Positions 165 to 19,782 of a stretch of 24,000 nucleotides of DNA are shown here, in pieces. The stretch covers positions 4,211,398-4,235,397 of the forward strand of contig NZ_CP012266.1 of the NCBI RefSeq assembly GCF_001277235.1, given 5' to 3'. Below the pieces are notes generated by a model. It worked only from the letters and a program-made list of their open reading frames with translations, was not told where the DNA came from and made no database searches. The DNA is from Cronobacter dublinensis subsp. dublinensis LMG 23823. Lineage in GTDB: Bacteria; Pseudomonadota; Gammaproteobacteria; Enterobacterales; Enterobacteriaceae. A program made the position numbers and the translations under genes. Within the stretch, counting starts at the first letter, position 1. Each line of letters begins with the position of its first letter.

Positions 165-745
165 GAAACTCTCTCTGGCATGCGGGCCTGCTGCTCGCGC
201 TCACGCTGTCGGTTGGCTGTACGTCGCATACCCACGGGCAGAACGATCCGCATCCGCAGGCCTGGCTCAAACCTGGCGTGCGCGTAACGCTGCCACCGCC
301 GGGGATTACGCCTGCGGTGAACAGCCAACAATTGCTGACCGGCGAATTCAACGGGCAAAAGCAGTCACTGCTGGTGATGCTGAACGCCGATCGCGAAAAA
401 ATCACGCTGGCGGGGCTCTCGTCGGTGGGTATCCGGCTGTTTCTCGCAACCTACGACAGCCGCGGCATTCATACGGAGCAGTCCATCGTCGTCCCGCAGC
501 TGCCGCCCGCAAGCCAGGTGCTGGCCGATATCATGCTCAGCCACTGGCCGGTTGACGCCTGGCGGGCGCATTTACCGGCAGGCTGGACGCTGACAGACCA
601 TCTCGATCGCCGCGAACTGCGCGACAGCGACGGCAAGCTGGTCACGCGGATCACCTATCTGGAGCGCGGGGCGTTGCGCCAGCCCATCAGCATTGAGCAG
701 GCGGTGTTCCACTACCACATCACGATTCAATATCTGGACGACTGA
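161..745 (+). CDS. Small exported protein or putative lipoprotein (DUF3261-like, ApeN-like position in APE clusters)
   Basis: An internal ATG at 161 of the 86-745 ORF gives MRNSLWHAGLLLALTLSVGCTS, a signal peptide with a lipobox-like SVGC. The start is coupled to the upstream stop by ATGA. It sits between the exporter and the KS gene, as in APE clusters. The 86 start was rejected because it would overlap the upstream gene by 79 nt. Confidence 0.6.
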   Translation: MRNSLWHAGLLLALTLSVGCTSHTHGQNDPHPQAWLKPGVRVTLPPPGITPAVNSQQLLTGEFNGQKQSLLVMLNADREKITLAGLSSVGIRLFLATYDSRGIHTEQSIVVPQLPPASQVLADIMLSHWPVDAWRAHLPAGWTLTDHLDRRELRDSDGKLVTRITYLERGALRQPISIEQAVFHYHITIQYLDD

Positions 746-746
746 G

Positions 747-1916
747 ATGATTTACGTTTCCGCCATGGGGATGGTCAGCGCGCTCGGCACCACGCTTGAT
801 GATACCGCCGCCAGCCTGCAAAGCGGCGTCGTGCCGGGCATGAAGCTGCGCAGCGGCTGGTTGCAACAGGGGCAGGACGCCATGCTGGGCGGCGTTGAAG
901 GCCCGCTCCCGGCGATCCCGGACGCCTTCCGGGCGCACCGTTCCCGAAATAATCAGCTCCTGCTGGCCGCCCTTGCGCAAATACAGCCGCAGGTTGATGC
1001 CGCCATTGCGCAGTATGGCCGCGATCGGGTGGCCGTGGTGCTGGGCACCAGCACGTCGGGCCTTGATGAAAGCGACCGGCACCTCGAAGCGCACTTTAAT
1101 AACGACGACGCGACCGACTGGCACTACTACCAGCAGGAGTTAGGCGATCCTTCGCGTTTTCTTGCCGCGTGGCTGCAATTACAGGGCCCGGCCTTCACGC
1201 TGTCGACCGCCTGCTCCTCCAGCGCCAGGGCGGTTATCAGCGGGAAACGCCTGATTGAAGCGGGCCTTGCGGATGTCGCGATTGTCGGCGGGGCCGACAC
1301 GTTAAGCCGGATGCCGGTCAATGGTTTTGACAGCCTTGAGTCGTTCTCCTCTCGCCTGTGCGAGCCCTTTGGTCGCGACCGTTGCGGCATTACCATCGGC
1401 GAAGGAGCCGGGCTAATGCTGCTGACCTCGCAGCCGCAGGCCATCGCGCTGCTCGGTACGGGCGAGTCCAGCGACGCGTACCATATTTCTGCGCCGCATC
1501 CGGAAGGCGAAGGCGCTATCCGGGCTATTACACAGGCGCTGCGCGAAGCGAGCCTTGCGCCGGAAGATATCGGTTATATCAACCTGCACGGCACCGCCAC
1601 CCCGCTTAACGATAAAATCGAGTCGCAGGTGGTGCATACGCTGTTTGGCAATCGCGTGCCGTGCAGTTCCACCAAACACCTCACCGGACATACGCTCGGC
1701 GCGGCCGGGATTTGCGAAGCGATTATCAGCGCGCTCATTCTTGCACGCGCGCTGCCCCTGCCTGCGCAAGATTTTGCGCGTTATTCGCCCGATGAAACCC
1801 TGCCGGATTGCGGCATTCTGCACGCCCCGACGCCGCTGCGTCGGCCTTACGTGCTTTCTAATTCATTCGCTTTTGGCGGCAACAATACCAGCCTGTTATT
1901 CGGGAGGATGTCGTGA
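747..1916 (+). CDS. Beta-ketoacyl-ACP synthase family protein (ApeO-like KS)
   Basis: The KS motifs are visible: active-site Cys in LSTACSSS, His in AYHISAP and NLHGTATPLND, KHLTGHTLGAAG, and C-terminal NSFAFGGNNTSLL. I chose the ATG at 747 (MIYVSAMGMVSALG), one nt after the upstream TGA (743-745), rather than the 693 ORF start. Confidence 0.85.
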   Translation: MIYVSAMGMVSALGTTLDDTAASLQSGVVPGMKLRSGWLQQGQDAMLGGVEGPLPAIPDAFRAHRSRNNQLLLAALAQIQPQVDAAIAQYGRDRVAVVLGTSTSGLDESDRHLEAHFNNDDATDWHYYQQELGDPSRFLAAWLQLQGPAFTLSTACSSSARAVISGKRLIEAGLADVAIVGGADTLSRMPVNGFDSLESFSSRLCEPFGRDRCGITIGEGAGLMLLTSQPQAIALLGTGESSDAYHISAPHPEGEGAIRAITQALREASLAPEDIGYINLHGTATPLNDKIESQVVHTLFGNRVPCSSTKHLTGHTLGAAGICEAIISALILARALPLPAQDFARYSPDETLPDCGILHAPTPLRRPYVLSNSFAFGGNNTSLLFGRMS

Positions 1917-2389
1917 CCCCTTATCTGGCGCCTGGCGCTTATTTACCGCATGAAACCCCGATGCTGCTTCTGGAAAGCGTCCTGACGATAAGCGACAACA
2001 GCGCGCGGTGTCGCGTCACCGTGTCGCCGCAGGGCGTGCTGGCACCGTTTCTGACCGCCGAAGGCGACCTTCCCGCCTGGTACGCGATGGAGCTGATGGC
2101 GCAGACAGTGGGCGTCTGGTCCGGCTGGCACCGCACGACGCGCGGTGAGCCGGGCATCGCGCTCGGCATGATTTTGGGCGTGCGCGACCTGCAATGTCAG
2201 CACAGCGTTTTTGCGCGCGGCAGCGTGCTGGACATCGACGTGACCCTGCTGTTGCAGGATGAAAAATTCGGCAGTTTCGACGCCGTTCTCCACGCCGACG
2301 GGGCGAGCCTCGCCCGTGGACGCATTAATACCTTTCAGCCGGATAACGCCGAGCTGAATCAGCTTTTTTCTCAGGGAGCCTCTACATGA
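1913..2389 (+). CDS. Hotdog-fold 3-hydroxyacyl-ACP dehydratase (FabA/FabZ-like, ApeP-like)
   Basis: A GTG start at 1913 overlaps the KS stop (GTGA), with GGGAGG 5 nt upstream. The N-terminal LPHETPMLLLESVL motif is typical of these dehydratases. Its size (158 aa) and position between the KS and KR genes also fit. Confidence 0.8.
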   Translation: MTPYLAPGAYLPHETPMLLLESVLTISDNSARCRVTVSPQGVLAPFLTAEGDLPAWYAMELMAQTVGVWSGWHRTTRGEPGIALGMILGVRDLQCQHSVFARGSVLDIDVTLLLQDEKFGSFDAVLHADGASLARGRINTFQPDNAELNQLFSQGAST

Positions 2390-3117
2390 GTCGATCAGTT
2401 CTGGTTACCGGAGCCAGCAAAGGCATTGGCCGGGCGATTGCTCGTCAGCTGGCTGCCGACGGTTTTACCGTCGGGGTACATTATCATCGCGACGAAAACG
2501 GCGCGCAGGAGACGCTACGCGCCATCACCGACGCCGGCGGCACGGGGCGTCTGCTCTGTTTCGACGTCAGCCAGCGTGACGCGTGCCGTGCCACGCTTGA
2601 AGCCGATATTGAACGCCACGGCGCCTGGTATGGCCTCGTCAGTAACGCGGGCATCACCCGGGACGGCGCGTTTCCGGCGCTCAGCGACGATGACTGGGAC
2701 GCGGTTATCCATACCAATCTCGACAGTTTTTATAACGTGGTGCAGCCCTGCATTATGCCGATGATCGCCGCCCGTCAGGGGGGAAGGATTGTGACGGTCT
2801 CTTCCGTCTCCGGGATCATGGGCAATCGCGGGCAGGTTAACTACAGCGCGGCCAAAGCGGGCATTATCGGCGCGACGAAAGCGCTGGCGATCGAGCTTGC
2901 GAAGCGCAAAATCACCGTCAACTGCATCGCGCCTGGCCTGATTGACACCGGCATGATTGACATGGAAGAAGCGGCCTTAAAAGAAGCGATGAGCATTATC
3001 CCGATGAAACGCATGGGCCAGGCCGACGAAGTCGCGGGCCTCGCCAGCTATCTGATGTCCGATATCGCGGGCTACGTTACCCGCCAGGTCATCTCCATCA
3101 ACGGGGGAATGCTATGA
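2386..3117 (+). CDS. 3-oxoacyl-ACP reductase, FabG-like SDR (ApeQ-like)
   Basis: It carries TGASKGIGRAIA (the Rossmann TGxxxGxG motif), NAGI, S...YSAAK catalytic residues and a C-terminal INGGM. The start has an ATGA overlap with the upstream gene. Confidence 0.9.
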   Translation: MSRSVLVTGASKGIGRAIARQLAADGFTVGVHYHRDENGAQETLRAITDAGGTGRLLCFDVSQRDACRATLEADIERHGAWYGLVSNAGITRDGAFPALSDDDWDAVIHTNLDSFYNVVQPCIMPMIAARQGGRIVTVSSVSGIMGNRGQVNYSAAKAGIIGATKALAIELAKRKITVNCIAPGLIDTGMIDMEEAALKEAMSIIPMKRMGQADEVAGLASYLMSDIAGYVTRQVISINGGML

Positions 3118-4343
3118 TGCGCCGCGTTGTTATTACCGGAATGGCGGGCGTCACAGCCTTTGGTGAGACCTGGCAGGCGGTGGCCGCGCGTCTGAAAGCG
3201 GGCGAAAACGCCGTGCGCAAAATGCCGGAATGGCAGGTCTACGACGGGCTGCATACCCTGCTGGGCGCGCCCGTCGATGATTTCGTGACGCCGGATCACT
3301 ACACCCGTAAACGCATCCGCTCGATGGGCAGAGTGTCGCTGATGTCTACCCGCGCGACGGAGCTGGCGCTGGAGATGGCGGGCCTTATCGACGACCCCGT
3401 GCTGACCAGCGGCGAAACGGGCATCGCCTACGGCTCATCGACCGGCAGCACCGGCCCGGTGAGCGAATTCGCGACTATGCTGACGGAGAAACACACCAAC
3501 AATATTACCGGCACCACGTATGTCCAGATGATGCCGCACACCACCGCCGTGAATACCGGGCTTTTCTTCGGGCTGAAAGGACGCGTGATCCCCACCTCCA
3601 GCGCCTGTACCTCCGGCAGCCAGGCCATCGGTTACGCCTGGGAGGCTATCCGCCACGGTTATCAGACTGTCATGGTGGCGGGCGGCGCAGAAGAGTTATG
3701 CCCTTCCGAAGCGGCGGTCTTCGACACCCTCTTCGCCACCAGCCAGCGCAACGAGGCCCCGAAAACCACGCCCGCGCCGTTCGATAAAGACCGCGACGGC
3801 CTGGTCATTGGCGAAGGCGCCGGAACGTTAATTCTGGAAGAGCTGGAGCACGCGAAAGCGCGCGGCGCCACTATTTACGGGGAGATCGTCAGCTTTTACA
3901 CCAACTGCGACGCCGCGCATATTACGCAGCCGCAGCGCGAAACGATGCAGATTTGCATTGAACGTGCGTTATCGATGGCGGCGCTTACGCCACAGGACAT
4001 CGGGTATATCTGCGCTCACGGCACCGCCACCGACCGGGGCGATATCGCCGAAACGCAGGCCACCGCCGCTGTATTCGGCGAGCACACGCCAATTTCTTCG
4101 CTGAAAAGCTATTTCGGCCACACGCTTGGCGCGTGCGGCGCGCTGGAGGCGTGGATGAGCCTCGAAATGATGCGTGAAGGCGCGTTCGCGCCGACGCTTA
4201 ACCTGCGTCAGCCGGATGACCAGTGCGGCGCGCTCGATTACATCATGCATGCGCCGCGCGCTATCGACTGCGAATTTATTCAGACGAACAACTTCGCGTT
4301 TGGCGGTATTAACACCTCGCTGGTGTTGCGTCGCTGGCCTTAA
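3114..4343 (+). CDS. Beta-ketoacyl-ACP synthase, FabB/FabF-like (ApeR-like KS)
   Basis: The motifs are active-site Cys in TSSACTSGSQA, His in AAHITQP and CAHGTATDRGD, KSYFGHTLGACG, and NNFAFGGINTSLV. The start has an ATGA overlap with the reductase stop. Confidence 0.9.
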   Translation: MMRRVVITGMAGVTAFGETWQAVAARLKAGENAVRKMPEWQVYDGLHTLLGAPVDDFVTPDHYTRKRIRSMGRVSLMSTRATELALEMAGLIDDPVLTSGETGIAYGSSTGSTGPVSEFATMLTEKHTNNITGTTYVQMMPHTTAVNTGLFFGLKGRVIPTSSACTSGSQAIGYAWEAIRHGYQTVMVAGGAEELCPSEAAVFDTLFATSQRNEAPKTTPAPFDKDRDGLVIGEGAGTLILEELEHAKARGATIYGEIVSFYTNCDAAHITQPQRETMQICIERALSMAALTPQDIGYICAHGTATDRGDIAETQATAAVFGEHTPISSLKSYFGHTLGACGALEAWMSLEMMREGAFAPTLNLRQPDDQCGALDYIMHAPRAIDCEFIQTNNFAFGGINTSLVLRRWP

Positions 4344-4345
4344 CC

Positions 4346-4963
4346 GTGCTGCGTGTCGTTATCGGCGAGACCGCCTCGCTGTGCTCGCCGCAGGCGGCGG
4401 CGCGCTGGCTTTCGCCCGCATTGCTGGCGCAACAACCGACGGGCCCGCGTCAGGCGAGCTGGCTTGCCGGGCGCATTATGCTGGCCTGGGCTATCGGTAC
4501 GCCTGCCCTGCCGCCGCTTGGGGAAAACCAGAACGGTAAGCCCTGTTTAGCGCACGATTCTGGGCTGGCCTTTAATCTCAGCCATAGTGACGGCGTGGTG
4601 GCGCTGGCATTAAGTGACGCCGGCGAGGTGGGCTGTGATATTGAAAGGATCCGGGCGCGCCGACGCGTGCAGCCCCTCGCGCAGGCGATTTTCAGCGACG
4701 AGGAGCAGGCAATGCTGTCTGCGCTGCCCGCTGAAGCCAGGCTGCCCGCGTTCTGGCAGTGCTGGACCCGGCGCGAGGCGCTTATCAAGCAACGCGCAGG
4801 CACCGTCTGGGAACTCCTGCAGACGCCGCAAAGCGTCACGGCGTCTGACACCGTTTTTATCAGCGACTGTCGCTGGCGGGATCTGCACATCGCCGTTTGC
4901 GCATCCGCGCCGTATGCCCCTCTTGAGCGGCATCTGGAATACCTGACGCCCACCTCGCTGTAG
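4346..4963 (+). CDS. acpT: 4'-phosphopantetheinyl transferase AcpT
   Basis: A GTG start lies 2 nt after the KS stop. The product aligns by eye with my recollection of E. coli AcpT: MLRVVIGE... versus MYRIVLGK..., then WLAGR, FNLSHS, LSDAGEVGCDIE and WTRREALIKQRAG. Confidence 0.85.
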   Translation: MLRVVIGETASLCSPQAAARWLSPALLAQQPTGPRQASWLAGRIMLAWAIGTPALPPLGENQNGKPCLAHDSGLAFNLSHSDGVVALALSDAGEVGCDIERIRARRRVQPLAQAIFSDEEQAMLSALPAEARLPAFWQCWTRREALIKQRAGTVWELLQTPQSVTASDTVFISDCRWRDLHIAVCASAPYAPLERHLEYLTPTSL

Positions 4964-4967
4964 ACGG

Positions 4968-5474
4968 TCACACCACGCGGCGCGCGGCGAGATAACGGAC
5001 GCGCCAGTAGCGGTTGCTCAGGCTGGAAATGGTCACGCCTTTCTCTTTCGAGGCGTGGATAAACTGGTCGTCGCCGATATACACGCCCACATGGCGCTGG
5101 CGCGGGCCGGTGTTGAAAAACACCAGATCGCCCGGCTGCAGCGCCGTTTTTCTTACCGCTCTGCCCTCCCTGATCTGCGCCTGCGTGGTGCGCGGCAGCG
5201 CGACGCTCGCCGATTCGGCAAACAGGTGCTGCATCAGCGCCGAGCAGTCGACGCCGCGGCGGGTCGTGCCGCCTAAGTGATAGCGGGTGCCTTTCCAGCT
5301 GCCGTAGCGGCTTAGCAGCGCGCTTTTCAGCCGCGGCGGCGGCGCATCGTGATGAAAGTGGTATGAGACATCCGTGTTTGTGCCCTGGTCATGCCAGGCG
5401 TTCGGTAGCGCCGCGCTGAACGCCGGCGCAGAGAGCAAAGCGGCAAAAGAAAAAATCATCAATAAAAAACGCAT
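4968..5474 (-). CDS. Secreted NlpC/P60-family peptidoglycan endopeptidase
   Basis: An internal ATG at 5474 gives MRFLLMIFSFAALLSAPAFSA, a Sec signal peptide with no lipobox Cys. The catalytic Cys is in RRGVDCSALM, with His in RHVGVYIG and FIHAS, and the C-terminus is NlpC-like (YWRVRYLAARRV). I rejected the 40-codon N-terminal extension to 5594 because it is not signal-like. Confidence 0.85.
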   Translation of the reverse strand: MRFLLMIFSFAALLSAPAFSAALPNAWHDQGTNTDVSYHFHHDAPPPRLKSALLSRYGSWKGTRYHLGGTTRRGVDCSALMQHLFAESASVALPRTTQAQIREGRAVRKTALQPGDLVFFNTGPRQRHVGVYIGDDQFIHASKEKGVTISSLSNRYWRVRYLAARRVV

Positions 5475-5865
5475 CGTGGTCACTAACGTTGTGTGTTGCT
5501 GTTCCCTACCCGGCAGGAAACCCGCTCCTGATGGGCTTCCTGTTACGGGGCGCAACGTTAACGACTGGCGATAAATTAGACTATCGACTCTCACTACATT
5601 CGCTTGTTACTCCACTTTCATTGCCCGCCGCACGGCGCGCATAAGCCCTTCATCCGCCAGCGCATAAACGCCTTTTTTACGCGCCAGGCCCTTCTTTTTA
5701 TGGGATTTTTACACCGACGCCCCCCTGAAAACGCTAGCCTTTGACCATCGCCCGAGCGGCTCTGAAGAAGCGTAACCTATGTTTTCCTTTGCTCTTACTC
5801 CCTGGTTCAAACCCCGCAGCCCGAGCCTCTCCTCCGGCCGCGTCTCATCCACGCAGGAACCGATC

Positions 5866-7206
5866 ATGTTCTCCACGTTGCTGAATACCTGGATGCTGGC
5901 GGGTACGCCTGACGGCGTCGGCGTACCGTTTCGCCAGGAGGCCGAGGCGTATTTGCGGGACTACCCGCACACCCGCCACGTCGATATTTACCTGCACGAT
6001 CTCAACGGCTGCCGTCGCGGTAAGCGCGTCAGCGTGGAGAGCCTGCGCGCGCTGGCGCAGGGCTGCTATTTCCCGCAGTCCGTCTATGAAATGGATAACG
6101 AAGGACAGGTGATTGCGGGCGCCGCGGCGCAACGCGAGCCTGACCGGCTCTGCCTGCCGGTCAGCGGCACGCTGCGCCCGTGCGCGGGCGATCCTGAGCA
6201 TCACGCCCAGCTGCTGCTCTCCATGCAAAGCCCGGACGGCGCAGGCTGCCCGCTGGAGCCGCGCGTGGTGCTGGAGCGGCTGCTGGCGACGTTTCACGCC
6301 CGTGGTTTGTACCCGGTCATGGCGCCGGAAGTGGAGTTCTATTTGCAGGCCGCAGACGGCGCCGCGCCGACATCGCGCTGTTTTGATGTCGACATGCCCG
6401 GGCGCGACAACGCGCTGCTGGAGGCGATGGAAACCGAAGCCCGCCGTCAGGGCCTGCCGCTGTGCGGCATCGTCGCGGAGGCCGAGGCGGGCCAGTTTGA
6501 GCTGAATTTTCGCCACAGCAGTCGCGTGGTGGCGCTCTGCGATAGGGTACTGGCGGCCCGACGGCTGGTGCATCAGGTGGCGGAAAAACAGGGCTACTAC
6601 GCCAGCTTTATGGCCAAGCCCCGGTCGGCGCTCGCGGGCAGCGGCCTGCACTTTCATATCAGCCTGAACGACGCGCAGGGCAATAATCTGTTCGCAAGCG
6701 AAGAGGGCCAGCCGAACGTCATGATGCGCCGCAGCCTGAGCGGCCTGCTGGCGCTGATGCCGGCAAGCGTCGCGCTGGTGACGCCCGGCGCTAACGCCTT
6801 CCGGCGGCTGCGCAAGAGCCTGAACGAACCGCTGTTCTCCTCCTGGGGCTATAACGACCGCTCGGCGGCGCTGCGTCTGCCGTGCGCCGATGCCGCGAGT
6901 CAGCGCATCGAATATCGGCTCGCGAGCGCGGACGCCAACCCGTATCTCGTGGCGGCGGCGGTGCTGGCGGGCGTGCTCTATGGGCTCGATCACCCGCTTA
7001 CGCTGCCGCAGGCCGGCTCAGTGGCCGGTCTGCCCGCCCTGCCGCTGTTCTGGCCGGACGCGCTGGCGCGTTTTCAGGAGGCCGACTGGCTGCGCAAACA
7101 ACTGGGCGCGCCGTTCAGCGACGCCTGGATCGCCTGCAAGCGTCAGGAGCTGGCCCGGTTCGAAAGTGAAGTCACCGACGCGGAAAAACGCGCGCATCGT
7201 CATTAA
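5866..7206 (+). CDS. Glutamine synthetase family protein (PuuA-like gamma-glutamyl ligase type)
   Basis: The GS catalytic-domain motifs appear intact: PEVEFYL, GSGLHFHISL, NAFRRL, WGYNDRSAALRLP and RIEYRLASADANPYL. I preferred the ATG at 5866 (AGGAA 7 nt upstream) over the 5779 ORF start. Confidence 0.85.
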   Translation: MFSTLLNTWMLAGTPDGVGVPFRQEAEAYLRDYPHTRHVDIYLHDLNGCRRGKRVSVESLRALAQGCYFPQSVYEMDNEGQVIAGAAAQREPDRLCLPVSGTLRPCAGDPEHHAQLLLSMQSPDGAGCPLEPRVVLERLLATFHARGLYPVMAPEVEFYLQAADGAAPTSRCFDVDMPGRDNALLEAMETEARRQGLPLCGIVAEAEAGQFELNFRHSSRVVALCDRVLAARRLVHQVAEKQGYYASFMAKPRSALAGSGLHFHISLNDAQGNNLFASEEGQPNVMMRRSLSGLLALMPASVALVTPGANAFRRLRKSLNEPLFSSWGYNDRSAALRLPCADAASQRIEYRLASADANPYLVAAAVLAGVLYGLDHPLTLPQAGSVAGLPALPLFWPDALARFQEADWLRKQLGAPFSDAWIACKRQELARFESEVTDAEKRAHRH

Positions 7207-7227
7207 TCACGCAAAAAGAGGTGAGTC

Positions 7228-8625
7228 ATGTCTCGCTTAGTCATGATATCCAGCCGCTGCGGCGTACCGCACGGCGCCGACGCGCAGGCGGAAGCCCTGC
7301 ACGACATTATGCGCCAGCGCGGCGGCCTGTGGATGGGCTGGAGCGGCGCTATCGGCCTCGCGGGCGCGCCGCGCCAGGTCAGCGTGCGGGACACCGCCGG
7401 TTATACGCGCCAGCGCTGGTCGATGTCGCCCACGGAGTACGCCGACTACTATCACGGCTATGTGCACCAGGCGTTGTGGCCGGTGTTTCATAACCGGCCC
7501 GATCTCGCCACCCACCCGAAGCGCGCGTTTTGCGCCTATAAAGCCTGGAACGAGGCGGTGGCGGAGATGGCGACGGATGAGATCTGCCCGGATGACGTGG
7601 TCTGGGTGCAGGATTACCATCTCATTCCTCTCGGGCGCTGCCTGAAGGAGGCAGGTCTGCTGAACCCGTGCGGCTTCTTTTTGCATCAGCCGTTTCCGCC
7701 AGGCGACGTCTTCAGAACGCTGCCGGAGCATGACTGGCTGATGCGCTCGCTCTTTTTCTACGATCTGATTGGCTTTCAGTCGGGCAGCGATGTGAACAAC
7801 TTTTTGCTCTGCGTCATGCGCCACTACCGCACGGAGCGGCTCTCCGCCACCACGCTTCGCGTTAACGGCCATATCATTAACGTCGGCGTCTTTCCCTGCG
7901 GCGTGGCGACGGCGCGCCCGGCCCGCCACGCGCCGCTGACCGGCAAATATCCGCGCCAGCTTATCGTCAGCGACGATGTGATAAACGACATCAGCGGCAT
8001 TCATTACCGCATCGACGCCATGCGCAGCCTGCTGAATAACCATCCGCACTATCTGCGCGACGTGACGCTGCTGCAAATGAGCGATCCGGCCAAAGAGTAC
8101 CCGCATTTTTCACCGCGGCTGGAGCAGCAGCTGGCGCGCTTTTGCAGCGAGGTAAACGGCGCTTTCGGCGATCTCAGCTGGTTTCCGGTTAATTATCTGC
8201 ATAACGACGCGCTGAACCGCCGCGCCGTCGCCGGGATTTACGGCCGCGCCAGAGTGGGACTGTTTACGCCGCTGTCAGAAGGCGTGAGCCTGAGCGCTAA
8301 AGCGTATGTGCTGGCGCAGGACCCGGCCGATCCGGGCGTGCTGATCCTCTCCCAGTTCACCGGCACGGCAGAGCAGCTTAAAGGCGCGATCATCGTGAAC
8401 CCGTATGACGCGCACGAGCTTAGCGAGGCGCTGCACTCGGCGCTCGCCATGCCGCTTGCGGAGCGCAGACAGCGACATGCCGCGCTGCTGATGCAGGTGC
8501 GCCAGTATGATAGTCAGTGGTGGGCGGGCGCGTTTCTCGACGCGCTGGAGGGCGAGCCTGGCGCGGGCGCGTCACATCGGCTGACGCGCCAGTACGGCAT
8601 TTTCACGCCGCAGAATCTCTACTGA
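7228..8625 (+). CDS. Glycosyltransferase family 20 (OtsA / trehalose-6-phosphate synthase-like) protein, divergent
   Basis: It is collinear along its full length with E. coli OtsA as I recall it: MSRLV..S.R, GGLW.GWSG, LWP.FH, QDYHL, GFFLH.PFP, YDL.GFQ, TPL..G..L.AK.YV.AQDP..PGVL.LSQF.G and IVNPYD. GAGG precedes the ATG. The gene starts 22 nt after the GS-like stop, so the two probably form an operon. Confidence 0.85.
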   Translation: MSRLVMISSRCGVPHGADAQAEALHDIMRQRGGLWMGWSGAIGLAGAPRQVSVRDTAGYTRQRWSMSPTEYADYYHGYVHQALWPVFHNRPDLATHPKRAFCAYKAWNEAVAEMATDEICPDDVVWVQDYHLIPLGRCLKEAGLLNPCGFFLHQPFPPGDVFRTLPEHDWLMRSLFFYDLIGFQSGSDVNNFLLCVMRHYRTERLSATTLRVNGHIINVGVFPCGVATARPARHAPLTGKYPRQLIVSDDVINDISGIHYRIDAMRSLLNNHPHYLRDVTLLQMSDPAKEYPHFSPRLEQQLARFCSEVNGAFGDLSWFPVNYLHNDALNRRAVAGIYGRARVGLFTPLSEGVSLSAKAYVLAQDPADPGVLILSQFTGTAEQLKGAIIVNPYDAHELSEALHSALAMPLAERRQRHAALLMQVRQYDSQWWAGAFLDALEGEPGAGASHRLTRQYGIFTPQNLY

Positions 8626-8631
8626 AGGGCG

Positions 8632-9822
8632 TTATTCGGCGAGCGCCTGGGCGCAGGCCCAGGCGGAGCTCCAGGCCCACTGGAAGTTATAGCCGCCAAG
8701 CCAGCCGGTCACATCCACTACTTCGCCGATAAAATAGAGCCCCGGCACGTTGCGCGCCTCCATCGTGCGGGAGGAGAGCGCATGCGTATCCACCCCGCCG
8801 AGCGTGACTTCCGCGGTGCGGTAGCCTTCGGTGCCGTTGGGCTGGACGCGCCAGCCGTGCAGCGTCTCCAGCAGCTCCTGCTGCTGGCGGCTGTTGAGCT
8901 GTTTCAGCGTGACGTCCGGCAGTTGTCCGAGGCTTTGCAGGCACTCCACCAGCCGCTTTGGCAGCAGCATCGCGAGCGTGTTTTTCAGGCTCTGGTTCGG
9001 GTGCGCGGCGCGCTGTTCGTCGATAAACGCGCCCGCGTCGACATCCGGCAGCAGGTTGACCGCCACCCACTCGCCCGGTTGCCAGTAGCTGGAGATCTGC
9101 AAAATCGCCGGGCCGGAGAGCCCGCGATGGGTAAAAAGGATGCTTTCGCGAAACACCGTGCCGTCGTCGGCAGTGACCACGGTGGGCACCGAGACGCCGG
9201 AGAGCGTCTGGATCTGTTCAAGCAACGGCTTATGCAGCGTAAACGGCACCAGGCCCGCGCGGGTCGGCAGCACGTTCAGGCCAAACTGCTCCGCGACTTT
9301 ATAGCCGAACGGCGTCGCGCCGAGGCCGGGCATCGACAGGCCGCCGCTCGCGATAACCAGCTTCGGCGTTTGTACCGCGCCGCCGTTAAGCGTCAGGGTA
9401 TAGCCGTTCTCGTCGCGCGCGATGCCCAGCACTTCGCTGCGCAGCCGCACGGTGACGCCGCCTTTCTCGCACTCCGCCATCAGCATCGTGACAATCTGTT
9501 CCGCCGAGTCGTCGCAGAAAAGCTGTCCGAGCGTTTTCTCATGCCAGGTGATGCCGTGCTTGCCCACCAGATCGATAAAATCCCACTGGGTGTAGCGCGC
9601 CAGTGCCGATTTGCAGAAGTGCGGGTTGGCGCTGAGGTAGGCCGAAGGCTCAACGTAAAGGTTGGTGAAATTGCAGCGTCCGCCGCCGGACATCAGGATT
9701 TTACGCCCCGGTTTTTTGCCGTTATCCAGCACTAACACCCGGCGCCCTGCCTGTCCTGCCAGCGCTGCGCAGAATAATCCTGCCGCGCCCGCCCCTACGA
9801 TGATGGCATCAAACTGTTCCAC
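8632..9822 (-). CDS. yhiN: NAD(P)/FAD-dependent oxidoreductase YhiN (BaiN/RdsA family)
   Basis: There is an N-terminal FAD fingerprint (DAIIVGAGAAGLFCA) followed by GRKILMSGGGRCNFTN. It is syntenic with pitA as in E. coli. A GTG start at 9822 has GAGGAAGG upstream. Confidence 0.9.
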   Translation of the reverse strand: MEQFDAIIVGAGAAGLFCAALAGQAGRRVLVLDNGKKPGRKILMSGGGRCNFTNLYVEPSAYLSANPHFCKSALARYTQWDFIDLVGKHGITWHEKTLGQLFCDDSAEQIVTMLMAECEKGGVTVRLRSEVLGIARDENGYTLTLNGGAVQTPKLVIASGGLSMPGLGATPFGYKVAEQFGLNVLPTRAGLVPFTLHKPLLEQIQTLSGVSVPTVVTADDGTVFRESILFTHRGLSGPAILQISSYWQPGEWVAVNLLPDVDAGAFIDEQRAAHPNQSLKNTLAMLLPKRLVECLQSLGQLPDVTLKQLNSRQQQELLETLHGWRVQPNGTEGYRTAEVTLGGVDTHALSSRTMEARNVPGLYFIGEVVDVTGWLGGYNFQWAWSSAWACAQALAE

Positions 9823-18177: not shown

Positions 18178-19782
18178 TTAGCGGATCGTCTGGTAAATCG
18201 CCTCGCGGATTTTCACCCACTTTTTCGTCTCTTCGCCGGGGTTCGCCTGGGCGCGCAGCTGCGCCTGTTCAAGCTCATATTTCTGGCGCTGCACCACCAC
18301 CGGCACAGTACAAAACGCCTGCAAATATTGCTTACGCATCGACGTCATCTTTTCGCCCTGCGACAGCGCGTGGCTGAGCGTCGTTATCATGCGCCGACAC
18401 GGTTTAAGCTCATCCATCTGCAGGCGATAACGCAGCAGGGTTTCCAGCGTCGCTTCATGATTTTTGGCGAGCGCCTGCTCGGTCCAGGCCACCTTCCAGT
18501 TCATCCCGGCTTCTAAAAAGAGGCGCGTCACCACGGCGTCATCACGATCGATAGCGGCGCGCAGGTTCCCTTGATCCCAGGTAATGCCCATATTGCTGAG
18601 CTTATGGCGCGGGCTGTCGTCGCTATTTTCCGGCTCGGCGGCCATCGCGGTGGCGACCGGCATTGTCGCGTTACGCTCCGCCGCGGGCGGGTTGAGGGAA
18701 TCGCTGGCGATAAACAACCCGCCGACCACCAGCGCGATAGCGCCGAGGCCCACCGCGCCCCACACCGCGCTCATCACCAGCTGGCGGGTCTCCTGCTTTT
18801 TGCCGTCCTGGCGTCGGCTCGGGCTTTCGATGGCGTCGCGCACGTCAAAAATATCGCCGCCGACCACGCTGTTTTTCTTCGCCGCATGGTCGAAAAACGT
18901 TTTCAGCTGCGCGTCGTCAGCTTTCATCAGCGCGGCAGGGTTAACGCGCGTGCGCCCCTCGCCGCAGGCTTTATGCAGCGGTGCGCTGATGGCGTTGAAA
19001 TAGTTATCCAGCATCACTTCCTGCGCGCCGGAGAGCGGTTTGCCGAGCGCGGCGGTATTACGGATATCGCGGATGTCATCCAGCAGCGTTTGCAGGGTTT
19101 TACGCGGCTCGACGAACAGCGTCAGCGAGGTCGCGCCCTGGAAAAGCCGGTCGTAGTGGCGGGCGAAGAGTTTTTTGTCCACCACCAGCATCGCCAGCTC
19201 GCTGAACAGCATGCCGCTCAGCACGTCGCCCTTGTCGCCCATTTTCAGCCAGCGACGCACTTTATCGCCGCCGCACAGCTGCTTCAGCTCATTGACGCGC
19301 TGCTGTTCGTCGGGCCATGTTTCACGCACCATGCCGCGCAGCGTCAGATCCAGCGCGCGCAGCTGGCGCAGCGCTTCTCCCTGCTTCGCGTCTTTATTCA
19401 CGTCCATATCGGTGGAGTAACCGAGCTTCGGCTGCTGGTTGCGCACCTTCTCAAGGCAGGTCACGAAGCGCAGCGCGGCGAGAAGCTGGTTCTCAGTCAC
19501 ATCCTGACCGCTCTCATATTGCGGCACCAGCTGCTGTAAATGACGCAGTTGCAGGGTGAACTGCGACATGTCGGCGTCGTTGAGGTTAAGGCGTCGGGCG
19601 ACGGTCGCCCAGTTGCCGAGATTCAGGCGCGCCTGGTCGAGCTGTTGTAAAAACCACTGCGGATCTTTTCCTTCCGCGACGTTAACGCCTAGCAAAACCA
19701 GGATCTCAACCGACGCCTGACGAATCACCGTCAGCGCAGTTTCAAACGTTTCTCTTACCAGAGGCTGTGTGGAGCGGGCCAT
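18178..19782 (-). CDS. Membrane-anchored protein of unknown function with an N-terminal Swt1-like HEPN-type domain (degenerate Rx4-6H motif), one TM helix and a C-terminal ankyrin-like region
   Basis: This is a 534-aa ORF with AAGGA 7 nt upstream of the ATG. Residues ~140-270 follow the Swt1-like HEPN pattern and end in IRNTAALGKPLS. A single hydrophobic helix spans residues 335-359, preceded by SRRQDGKKQETRQ. Residues ~400-455 look ankyrin-repeat-like. The domain calls come from by-eye pattern recognition only. Confidence 0.75.
   Translation of the reverse strand: MARSTQPLVRETFETALTVIRQASVEILVLLGVNVAEGKDPQWFLQQLDQARLNLGNWATVARRLNLNDADMSQFTLQLRHLQQLVPQYESGQDVTENQLLAALRFVTCLEKVRNQQPKLGYSTDMDVNKDAKQGEALRQLRALDLTLRGMVRETWPDEQQRVNELKQLCGGDKVRRWLKMGDKGDVLSGMLFSELAMLVVDKKLFARHYDRLFQGATSLTLFVEPRKTLQTLLDDIRDIRNTAALGKPLSGAQEVMLDNYFNAISAPLHKACGEGRTRVNPAALMKADDAQLKTFFDHAAKKNSVVGGDIFDVRDAIESPSRRQDGKKQETRQLVMSAVWGAVGLGAIALVVGGLFIASDSLNPPAAERNATMPVATAMAAEPENSDDSPRHKLSNMGITWDQGNLRAAIDRDDAVVTRLFLEAGMNWKVAWTEQALAKNHEATLETLLRYRLQMDELKPCRRMITTLSHALSQGEKMTSMRKQYLQAFCTVPVVVQRQKYELEQAQLRAQANPGEETKKWVKIREAIYQTIR

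Follow-up and report, generated by a model that had tools for sequence, protein, structure and literature searches.

A conserved operon of a PuuA-type ligase and a degenerate OtsA homologue behind a KdpE-operator-like promoter in Cronobacter dublinensis

The stretch of DNA analysed in this work (24,000 nucleotides; hereafter the window, with coordinates counted from its first letter) belongs to Cronobacter dublinensis subsp. dublinensis LMG 23823 (contig NZ_CP012266.1, positions 4,211,398 to 4,235,397). In this window, we found a two-gene operon that encodes a ligase of the glutamine synthetase (GS) family, related to PuuA, followed by a GT20 protein that is homologous to the trehalose-6-phosphate synthase OtsA but has lost the uridine diphosphate (UDP) binding site of that enzyme. 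We refer to the latter as pseudo-OtsA. The pair is preceded by a direct repeat that resembles the KdpE operator of Escherichia coli kdpFABC, and in several other bacteria a homologous pair lies beside kdpFABC itself. The features of the operon, all on the plus strand, are as follows.

5676–5681, plus strand: distal TTTAY half-site (TTTACG), 32 bp 5' of the proximal S2 half-site
5695–5715, plus strand: KdpE-operator-like direct repeat TTTTTATGGGATTTTTACACC, with half-sites TTTATG and TTTACA in an 11-bp register, recognised by its match to the E. coli operator
5735–5740, plus strand: candidate -10 hexamer TAGCCT, proposed because it aligns with TATACT, TATAAT or TAATCT of homologous promoters
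5748–5761, plus strand: conserved leader or promoter element TCGCCCGAGCGGCT (family consensus TCGCCGNNAGGCAT), present at 12 loci
5779–5865, plus strand: in-frame upstream extension of 29 codons, an alternative ligase start or a leader peptide
5866–7206, plus strand: gene of a PuuA-type GS-family ligase (446 amino acids), putatively an ATP-dependent glutamate-amine ligase, from Pfam, BLASTP, residue comparison and the ratio of nonsynonymous to synonymous substitution rates (dN/dS)
7217–7224, plus strand: Shine-Dalgarno sequence of the GT20 gene, AGAGGTGA, read from the sequence
7228–8625, plus strand: gene of pseudo-OtsA (465 amino acids), a GT20 fold with the UDP-binding site destroyed and sugar-side residues kept, from Pfam, a residue table, an AlphaFold2 model and dN/dS

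The two open reading frames (ORFs) are separated by 21 nt (7207–7227) rather than the 22 nt given in the initial annotation of this DNA, and the separate Shine-Dalgarno sequence that it assigned to the GT20 gene is located inside this spacer. The ligase matches Pfam Gln-synt_C (E = 1e-72), and its translation contains all five motifs listed in that annotation (EVEFYL, HFHISL, NAFRRL, NDRSAALRLP, and RIEYRLASADANPYL). According to BLASTP, it is 44% identical to PuuA from the annotated E. coli genome over residues 19–440, including the N-terminal domain. We aligned the ligase with Salmonella typhimurium GlnA (sequence checked against PDB 1f1h) and 104 family members. Six metal ligands (E129, E131, E212, E220, H269, and E357 in GlnA numbering) are invariant among the 104 family members, with the equivalent of E212 sitting in the column labelled 207 owing to an indel. 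The ATP- and glutamate-binding residues (H271, S273, R321, R339, R344, R355, R359, and G265) are likewise invariant in the window ligase and its family. The residues that form the ammonium site of GS (D50, S53, Y179, and E327) are replaced, by A, a gap, C, and N in the window ligase and by E, G, V, and Y in PuuA, so the ligase should use an amine instead of ammonia as the partner of glutamate. Its dN/dS is 0.08–0.15 in three closely related locus pairs. The earlier reading of an active PuuA-type ligase is supported by the identity to PuuA, the invariant catalytic residues, and the PuuA-like replacement of the ammonium site; judged by these residues, the ligase is a catalytically intact, ATP-dependent member of the PuuA family.

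Compared with PuuA, the gamma-glutamylputrescine synthetase of E. coli, the window ligase has the same metal, ATP, and glutamate residues and the same loss of the GS ammonium site. However, it belongs to a different group. A neighbour-joining tree assigns E. coli PuuA to a sister clade that is distinct from the window-type ligases, and the window ligase fails to reach any NCBIfam equivalog cut-off (GlnT/GmaS, 177 vs 470; gamma-glutamylputrescine synthetase NF045547, 164 vs 650 bits; GlnA, 141 vs 429), which places it outside PuuA proper. It also differs from PuuA in having no puuBCDEPR genes nearby and in carrying a KdpE-type promoter motif; the strict form of this motif was not found upstream of E. 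coli puuA.

The GT20 protein matches Pfam Glyco_transf_20 (PF00982) nearly end to end (E = 3.5e-91, residues 18–441) and is 34% identical to E. coli OtsA. It scores below the cut-offs of the OtsA equivalogs (TIGR02400, 353 vs 565 bits; NF007513, 306 vs 759). Both proteins of the pair thus lie outside the curated equivalog families by NCBIfam score, which bears on the question, raised by the initial annotation, of whether they belong to clades with established functions. The AlphaFold2 model of the GT20 protein has a predicted local distance difference test score (pLDDT) of 84 and a predicted template modelling score (pTM) of 0.85, with the lowest confidence near the former donor site. Foldseek aligned this model with the OtsA structures 5tvg, 1gz5, 1uqu, and 2wtx at TM scores of 0.85–0.88, as expected of a GT-B fold.

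For residue comparison, we aligned the protein with E. coli OtsA (sequence checked against PDB 2wtx; numbering also checked) and 120 database homologues. Of these sequences, 82 make up the canonical OtsA set (81 database homologues and E. coli OtsA), and about 20 sequences that are 47–88% identical form the clade of the window protein. The residues R9, G21, G22, Y76, W85, D130, H154, Q185, R262, K267, R300, D361, N364, V366, and E369 are invariant in the 82 canonical OtsAs. The two groups compare as follows at these positions (E. coli OtsA numbering).

Positions 21–22: G-G in canonical OtsA; D plus A, P or L in the window clade
Position 262: R in canonical OtsA; V, I, A or T in the window clade
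Position 267: K in canonical OtsA; S, invariant, in the window clade
Position 361: D in canonical OtsA; E in the window clade
Position 369: E in canonical OtsA; A, E or K in the window clade, mostly lost
Position 300: R in canonical OtsA; K in the window protein, and K, Q, R, H, C, G or L in its clade
Position 9: R in canonical OtsA; mostly R in the window clade
Positions 76, 85, 130, 154 and 185: Y, W, D, H and Q in canonical OtsA; kept in the window clade

At Gly22, Arg262, Lys267, Asp361, and Glu369, the window protein itself has A, V, S, E, and A and so lacks the set required for binding UDP-glucose. Gly22, Arg262, Asp361, and Glu369 of OtsA contact UDP-glucose (PMC1769515), and Arg262, Lys267, Leu365, and Glu369 hold the ribose and phosphates (PMC3441724). 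Among the residues for glucose-6-phosphate, R9, Y76, and W85 are kept in the window protein, as are both Trp residues of GGLW(F/M)GWSG, and R300 is replaced by K. The active site has thus lost its nucleotide half and retained the sugar or acceptor half. Given these substitutions, the window protein cannot be a UDP-glucose-dependent trehalose-6-phosphate synthase. Of the earlier description as a full-length OtsA homologue, the full-length GT20 fold stands, and a functional OtsA-like glycosyltransferase does not.

The GT20 gene is not a decaying pseudogene, a possibility ruled out by its dN/dS of 0.10–0.15 in the same three locus pairs, which is in the range of the ligase. The clade has invariant residues of its own (E71, H81, P92, R164, R199, R202, N214, C225, S259, S267, V290, D297, N333, N337, and F356). 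Loss of substrate-binding residues together with purifying selection is the pattern of a non-catalytic GT20 protein. Public annotations label the proteins of the pair as trehalose-6-phosphate synthase and as glutamine synthetase or PuuA. These labels and the full-length GT20 fold would fit an ordinary redundancy, in which a second, divergent but active OtsA produces trehalose-6-phosphate for dephosphorylation by the host OtsB and the ligase is a spare PuuA. We consider this very improbable, because G22, R262, K267, and E369, all invariant in the canonical set, are lost, the protein scores far under the OtsA equivalog cut-offs, and the scanned ORFs of the window include neither nearby puu genes nor a PuuR-type context. 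The initial annotation had also reported no otsB-like or puu-type neighbour; we found none among 24 ORFs scanned against Pfam, which represent most of the longest ORFs of the window.

Compared with OtsA, pseudo-OtsA has the same GT-B fold, a similar length, and the acceptor-side residues R9, Y76, W85, D130, H154, and Q185, but it lacks G21G22, R262, K267, and E369, has E in place of D361, and has no otsB partner; the genes of its clade are preceded by a ligase gene at all loci examined. The closest parallels are eukaryotic. Yeast Tsl1/Tps3 and plant class II trehalose-6-phosphate synthases (TPS) contain non-catalytic GT20 domains that serve as regulatory or scaffold subunits (PMC1769515), and they resemble the window protein in the absence of substrate-binding residues under purifying selection. 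In contrast to the window protein, which is a single-domain bacterial GT20 protein of 465 amino acids with a GS-family ligase as partner, these proteins are fused to TPP-like domains and act in the trehalose synthase complex or in SnRK1 signalling. VldE of the validamycin pathway is another GT20-fold protein with non-canonical chemistry and has a weak sequence match to the window protein (E = 4e-10). However, VldE retains the Arg/Lys/Glu nucleotide-binding set and uses GDP-valienol (PMC3441724), whereas the window protein has lost this set. Our literature search found no description of the pair, of a bacterial non-catalytic OtsA, or of a kdp-linked GS/GT20 module.

Whether the pairing is conserved had been left as a question by the initial annotation. 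We found that it is: at least six genera have the pair, which is located in several chromosomal settings that are unrelated to one another as well as on plasmids, and the ligase gene is located directly 5' of the GT20 gene at every window-clade locus examined. Chromosomal pairs occur in Cronobacter (the window and locus L024), Franconibacter pulveris, and Franconibacter helveticus; plasmid pairs occur in Klebsiella pneumoniae, Pluralibacter gergoviae, Salmonella enterica, and Raoultella; and further pairs were found in Pluralibacter lignolyticus, Cedecea davisae, and a Salmonella contig. L024, which was located through a GT20 protein labelled C. turicensis (P0121), has the same arrangement as the window, so the genus has had the pair for a long time. 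A search of genome contigs with a single GT20 protein returned the two Franconibacter pair loci, and its other matches were otsA genes of Hydrogenophaga. In metagenomes, a search with the clade alignment returned 79 canonical otsA loci and a single member of the window clade. A GS-family gene within 4 kb was present at this one locus (1/1) vs none of the 79 canonical otsA loci. Chance adjacency of the two genes is ruled out by this conservation. The pair was not found in E. coli genomes, where similarity was limited to the level of puuA. A HAD phosphatase was not found near the pair in any locus viewed, and the pair has no consistent link to a phosphatase or exporter.

The chromosomal flanks differ between loci, so the pair behaves as a self-contained cassette. 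Plasmid copies are often bounded by insertion sequences (IS110, IS5, IS3, and ISNCY). A role in defence was considered and dropped, since neither protein matches a PADLOC defence-system model. Orthologous ligases that are 52–57% identical are found unpaired in Dickeya, Enterobacter cloacae, and Acinetobacter, and in the neighbour-joining tree unpaired ligases are mixed with paired ones. Between L018 and L019, the ligases are 74% and the GT20 proteins 56% identical; the corresponding values are 67 and 71% between L018 and L020, and 53 and 64% between L018 and L009. The disagreement of the two distance matrices for some loci implies that the partners have recombined between cassettes, with adjacency and gene order kept.

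A second degenerate GT20 clade is even more degenerate than that of the window, with N9, S21, T22, H262, A267, A300, A361, and M369. Its genes stand alone on Pantoea LPP-type megaplasmids (L021, 8001–9425; L022, 7947–9374) and are publicly annotated as trehalose-6-phosphate synthase. Proteins labelled Duffyella and Erwinia carry the same second-clade substitutions. One ligase, P0050 (L110/L111), was dropped as evidence for Pantoea, as its cdd-sanA/mglCAB context is typical of Enterobacter cloacae (compare L015); the Pantoea agglomerans label of its genome or bin is probably wrong.

The promoter region suggests a connection of these genes to kdp. A KdpE site has the half-sites TTTATA and TTTACA, which are 5 bp apart, and requires TTTA in both (PMC3264566). 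Window positions 5697–5713 read TTTATG-N5-TTTACA and match such a site in sequence and spacing. When the repeat at 5695–5715 was compared with the kdpFABC operator of the annotated E. coli genome (TTTTTATACTTTTTTTACACC), 17/17 specified bases matched, including the flanking ACACC. The likeness to the kdpFABC promoter and the KdpE regulon extends to the form of the operator, TTTTTAT-N4-TTTTTACACC, with two TTTAYA half-sites in an 11-bp register. This 17-base pattern occurs once in the window vs 0.01 occurrences expected, and the looser TTTAY-N6-TTTAY finds the same single site vs 0.03 expected by chance. Across loci, the strict motif is present within 200 nt 5' of the ligase gene in 12/15 cases, a density of 5.7 per kb vs 0.04 per kb elsewhere. 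An additional distal half-site, 32 bp 5', sets the window promoter apart from the kdp operator of E. coli. Sixteen promoters anchored on the proximal half-site align gap-free, and most of them show TTTAY-N16-TTTAY-N6-TTTAY; the distal half-site deviates from the 32-bp register by no more than 1 nt in most of the 16. Both this KdpE-operator-like element and the repeated linkage to kdp described below had been missed in the earlier account of the locus.

Phased TTTAY half-sites are common to the paired operons, the lone ligase genes (E. cloacae, Dickeya, and Acinetobacter), and the lone Pantoea pseudo-OtsA genes, which have the same three-half-site promoter as the window operon. This shared promoter type would suit a different arrangement, in which pseudo-OtsA is a co-regulated but mechanistically independent pseudoenzyme that acts on OtsA/OtsB or on Kdp signalling, in the manner of yeast Tsl1/Tps3 or the trypanosomatid 'prozymes', and the ligase has an unrelated job in the same regulon. 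The interspersed paired and unpaired ligases, the partly incongruent ligase and GT20 trees with their reshuffled partners, and the precedent of non-catalytic GT20 regulatory subunits (PMC1769515) point in the same direction. However, the constant presence of the ligase gene as the upstream neighbour at the window-clade loci examined implies more than shared regulation, and we regard full independence as possible, if on the unlikely side.

The candidate -10 hexamer TAGCCT lies 7 nt before the conserved TCGCC element; a consensus sigma-70 scan gave no match here. The TCGCCCGAGCGGCT element is found between the T-rich boxes and the long-form ATG of the ligase, at the same distance from that ATG in 12 loci. 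It had looked by eye like a GNRA hairpin (GCC-tetraloop-GGC), which we rejected because RNAalifold gives no consensus structure for TCGCCGNNAGGCAT. A sensitive Rfam scan of 5400–8800 found no riboswitch or leader RNA.

The pair adjoins kdpFABC on plasmids of Klebsiella, Pluralibacter, Raoultella, and Salmonella and on the Salmonella contig (L018, L019, L020, L109; L012), and kdpDE is also present at most of these loci. The Raoultella plasmid has trkH as well and two copies of the pair. These kdp-linked plasmids are conjugative or mobilisable, and by gene content the combination of kdpFABC(DE) and the pair looks like a transferable potassium-homeostasis island.

The T-rich repeat could instead be bound by another regulator, such as OmpR or an OmpR/PhoB-family protein, or form an UP-element-like A/T tract, and the operon would then not be regulated by potassium. 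Other OmpR-family regulators bind T-rich direct repeats, and their sites are degenerate. The third half-site at -32, which the kdp operator of E. coli lacks, would also fit another regulator. In genomic SELEX (systematic evolution of ligands by exponential enrichment) with E. coli K-12, kdpFABC was the sole target of activated KdpE (PMC5934670), which favours such a regulator at first sight; however, this result has no bearing on the operon, because E. coli K-12 does not have it. The 11-bp register with the complete match to the kdp operator and its flanking ACACC, and the repeated physical linkage to kdp operons, most with kdpDE, make this alternative rather unlikely.

We favour the interpretation that the pair is a self-contained, horizontally mobile stress operon, most likely controlled by KdpE or by a regulator of identical specificity, that takes part in the response to potassium limitation or osmotic stress. 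From the sequence comparisons made here, we give this reading a probability of about 0.5. When potassium becomes scarce or osmolarity rises, phospho-KdpE would switch on the operon along with kdpFABC. The ligase would join glutamate to an amine, with a polyamine such as putrescine as the leading candidate; this is the most economical guess for the amine because the ligase is kin to PuuA. Formation of the gamma-glutamyl amide may re-balance the pools of glutamate and organic cations that normally accompany potassium. Pseudo-OtsA may be a non-catalytic accessory that binds a sugar or sugar phosphate and serves the ligase or the trehalose pathway as a sensor or modulator. Since other lineages have either gene by itself with the same type of promoter, pseudo-OtsA should not be an obligatory subunit of the ligase. 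The idea in the initial annotation that the GT20 fold serves as a ligand-sensing subunit therefore survives as a non-catalytic ligand-binding partner, which fits best, and is weakened as an obligate complex, which is possible but unproven.

Several observations weigh against this interpretation. The plasmid-type promoters L012, L018, and L019 do not have the strict motif, and the proximal half-sites of L012 and L019 are 12 bp apart. We regarded a position of about -72 to -50 relative to the transcription start as typical of operators in the KdpE regulon; there are two candidate -10 elements, which give different operator distances, and the position of the box may differ from that in E. coli kdpFABC. 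The window itself does not contain kdp genes, and the linkage on plasmids could partly reflect one ancestral island that spread by transfer. The PuuA-like chemistry of the ligase is based on 44% identity. The ligase and GT20 genes are each found alone, and the two proteins may not interact. Finally, the retention of D130 and H154 and the new invariants R164, R199, R202, C225, and D297 leave room for an unforeseen catalytic activity of the GT20 protein.

This last point would suit a two-step biosynthesis, in which a GT20 enzyme with a non-nucleotide or novel donor and the ligase together produce a gamma-glutamyl sugar (phosphate) conjugate, for example, a new compatible solute under potassium or osmotic stress. 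The operon organisation, the strict co-occurrence inside the window GT20 clade, the retained Y76, W85, D130, H154, and Q185, the clade-specific invariant polar residues, and the strong purifying selection on the genes are all in line with such a pathway, and a stress-type promoter suits a compatible-solute role. However, all GT20 residues that stabilise the leaving diphosphate are gone, whereas even VldE retains the Arg/Lys pair (PMC3441724), and the phosphate-binding Gly loop is replaced by Asp. Furthermore, the ligase occurs without GT20 in many lineages, the Pantoea pseudo-OtsA genes have no adjacent ligase, and a consistently linked phosphatase or exporter is missing. We find this pathway doubtful. 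The synthesis of a gamma-glutamylated sugar, as proposed in the initial annotation, is unlikely as a route from a nucleotide sugar because the residues for the diphosphate and ribose of UDP are lost (Gly21-Gly22, Arg262, Lys267, and mostly Glu369). The operon is thus probably an undescribed part of the potassium and osmotic stress response rather than a sugar-conjugate pathway, as far as its sequence features indicate.

In a broader and more speculative form, which we hold to be possible though not likely, KdpE would control both the Kdp pump and a gamma-glutamyl-amine ligase that is gated by the first bacterial GT20 pseudoenzyme, which senses trehalose or a sugar phosphate and couples potassium to the glutamate, polyamine, and trehalose pools. 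On conjugative plasmids of Klebsiella, Salmonella, and related bacteria, the module would form a transferable island for stress or desiccation tolerance and move together with kdpFABCDE (and trkH).

KdpD/KdpE is among the most widespread two-component systems. A second conserved KdpE target across Enterobacterales and Acinetobacter, if true, would alter the view of the response to potassium limitation; our literature search found no extended KdpE regulon of this kind. Similarly, a dead yet strongly conserved OtsA paralogue would be the first bacterial counterpart found of the eukaryotic non-catalytic trehalose-synthase-like regulators. Cronobacter and Franconibacter are associated with dry foods and powders. 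With the pair chromosomal in these two genera and plasmid-borne beside kdp in Klebsiella, Salmonella, Raoultella, and Pluralibacter, the module may bear on persistence in dry food and on the spread of stress tolerance. The public 'trehalose-6-phosphate synthase' labels of pseudo-OtsA proteins represent a systematic mis-annotation, which is corrected here. The pair is built from known families, and the promoter match adds a concrete, if provisional, regulatory hypothesis.

Another GT20 variant, P0139 (a contig of GCA_015689235.1, and locus L026), has G21, T22, R262, T267, and S361. Its gene is preceded by an ORF of 101 amino acids and is convergent to kdpFABC, where kdpE comes immediately after kdpC without an intervening kdpD. 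The region upstream of the GT20 gene has no strict KdpE box.

There are two candidate start codons for the ligase. Translation from the in-frame ATG at 5779 gives 475 amino acids vs 446 from the ATG at 5866, and the public protein P0001, which is 100% identical to the window ligase, is annotated from 5779. The distance of ATG 5779 to the promoter elements is conserved across loci, and this codon does not have a good Shine-Dalgarno sequence; ATG 5866 has a better one (AGGA, 5855–5858). In Pluralibacter lignolyticus (L009), the equivalent upstream ATG starts a separate 16-codon ORF (8585–8635), MNPILRSSFLKNTPRV, which is similar to the N-terminal extensions (MNSxLRSSLLQN...) fused to the ligase at other loci. 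Judged by this similarity, MNPILRSSFLKNTPRV may be a leader peptide.

The pair is flanked by the following genes, and pitA is also among its flanking genes.

4346–4963: acpT, the upstream flank of the pair
4968–5594, minus strand: NlpC/P60 gene, between acpT and the pair
8632–9822, minus strand: yhiN, convergent with the GT20 gene

The initial annotation described an insert between acpT and yhiN, which is correct for the pair; the NlpC/P60 gene also lies there. The G+C content of the pair is 64–68%, slightly above that of the flanks (approximately 60%). The stop of the GT20 gene (8625) and that of yhiN (8632) are 6 nt apart, so an intrinsic terminator for either gene has no space. A consensus promoter and terminator scan found nothing useful 5' of the operon and no credible terminator.

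Two other regions of the window were recorded. The genes at 693–4343 (together with 86–745 and acpT) have the look of part of an aryl-polyene-type lipid cluster. They specify a pair of beta-ketoacyl synthases, a dehydratase similar to ApeP, a reductase of the FabG2 type, and a DUF3261 protein; acpT, for the phosphopantetheinyl transferase, comes next. On the minus strand, 18178–19782 encodes a protein of 534 amino acids with an N-terminal STY4199-like HEPN domain (Pfam E = 1e-129); this gene is located amid housekeeping genes and, from its domain content, could be a nuclease or defence-type gene.

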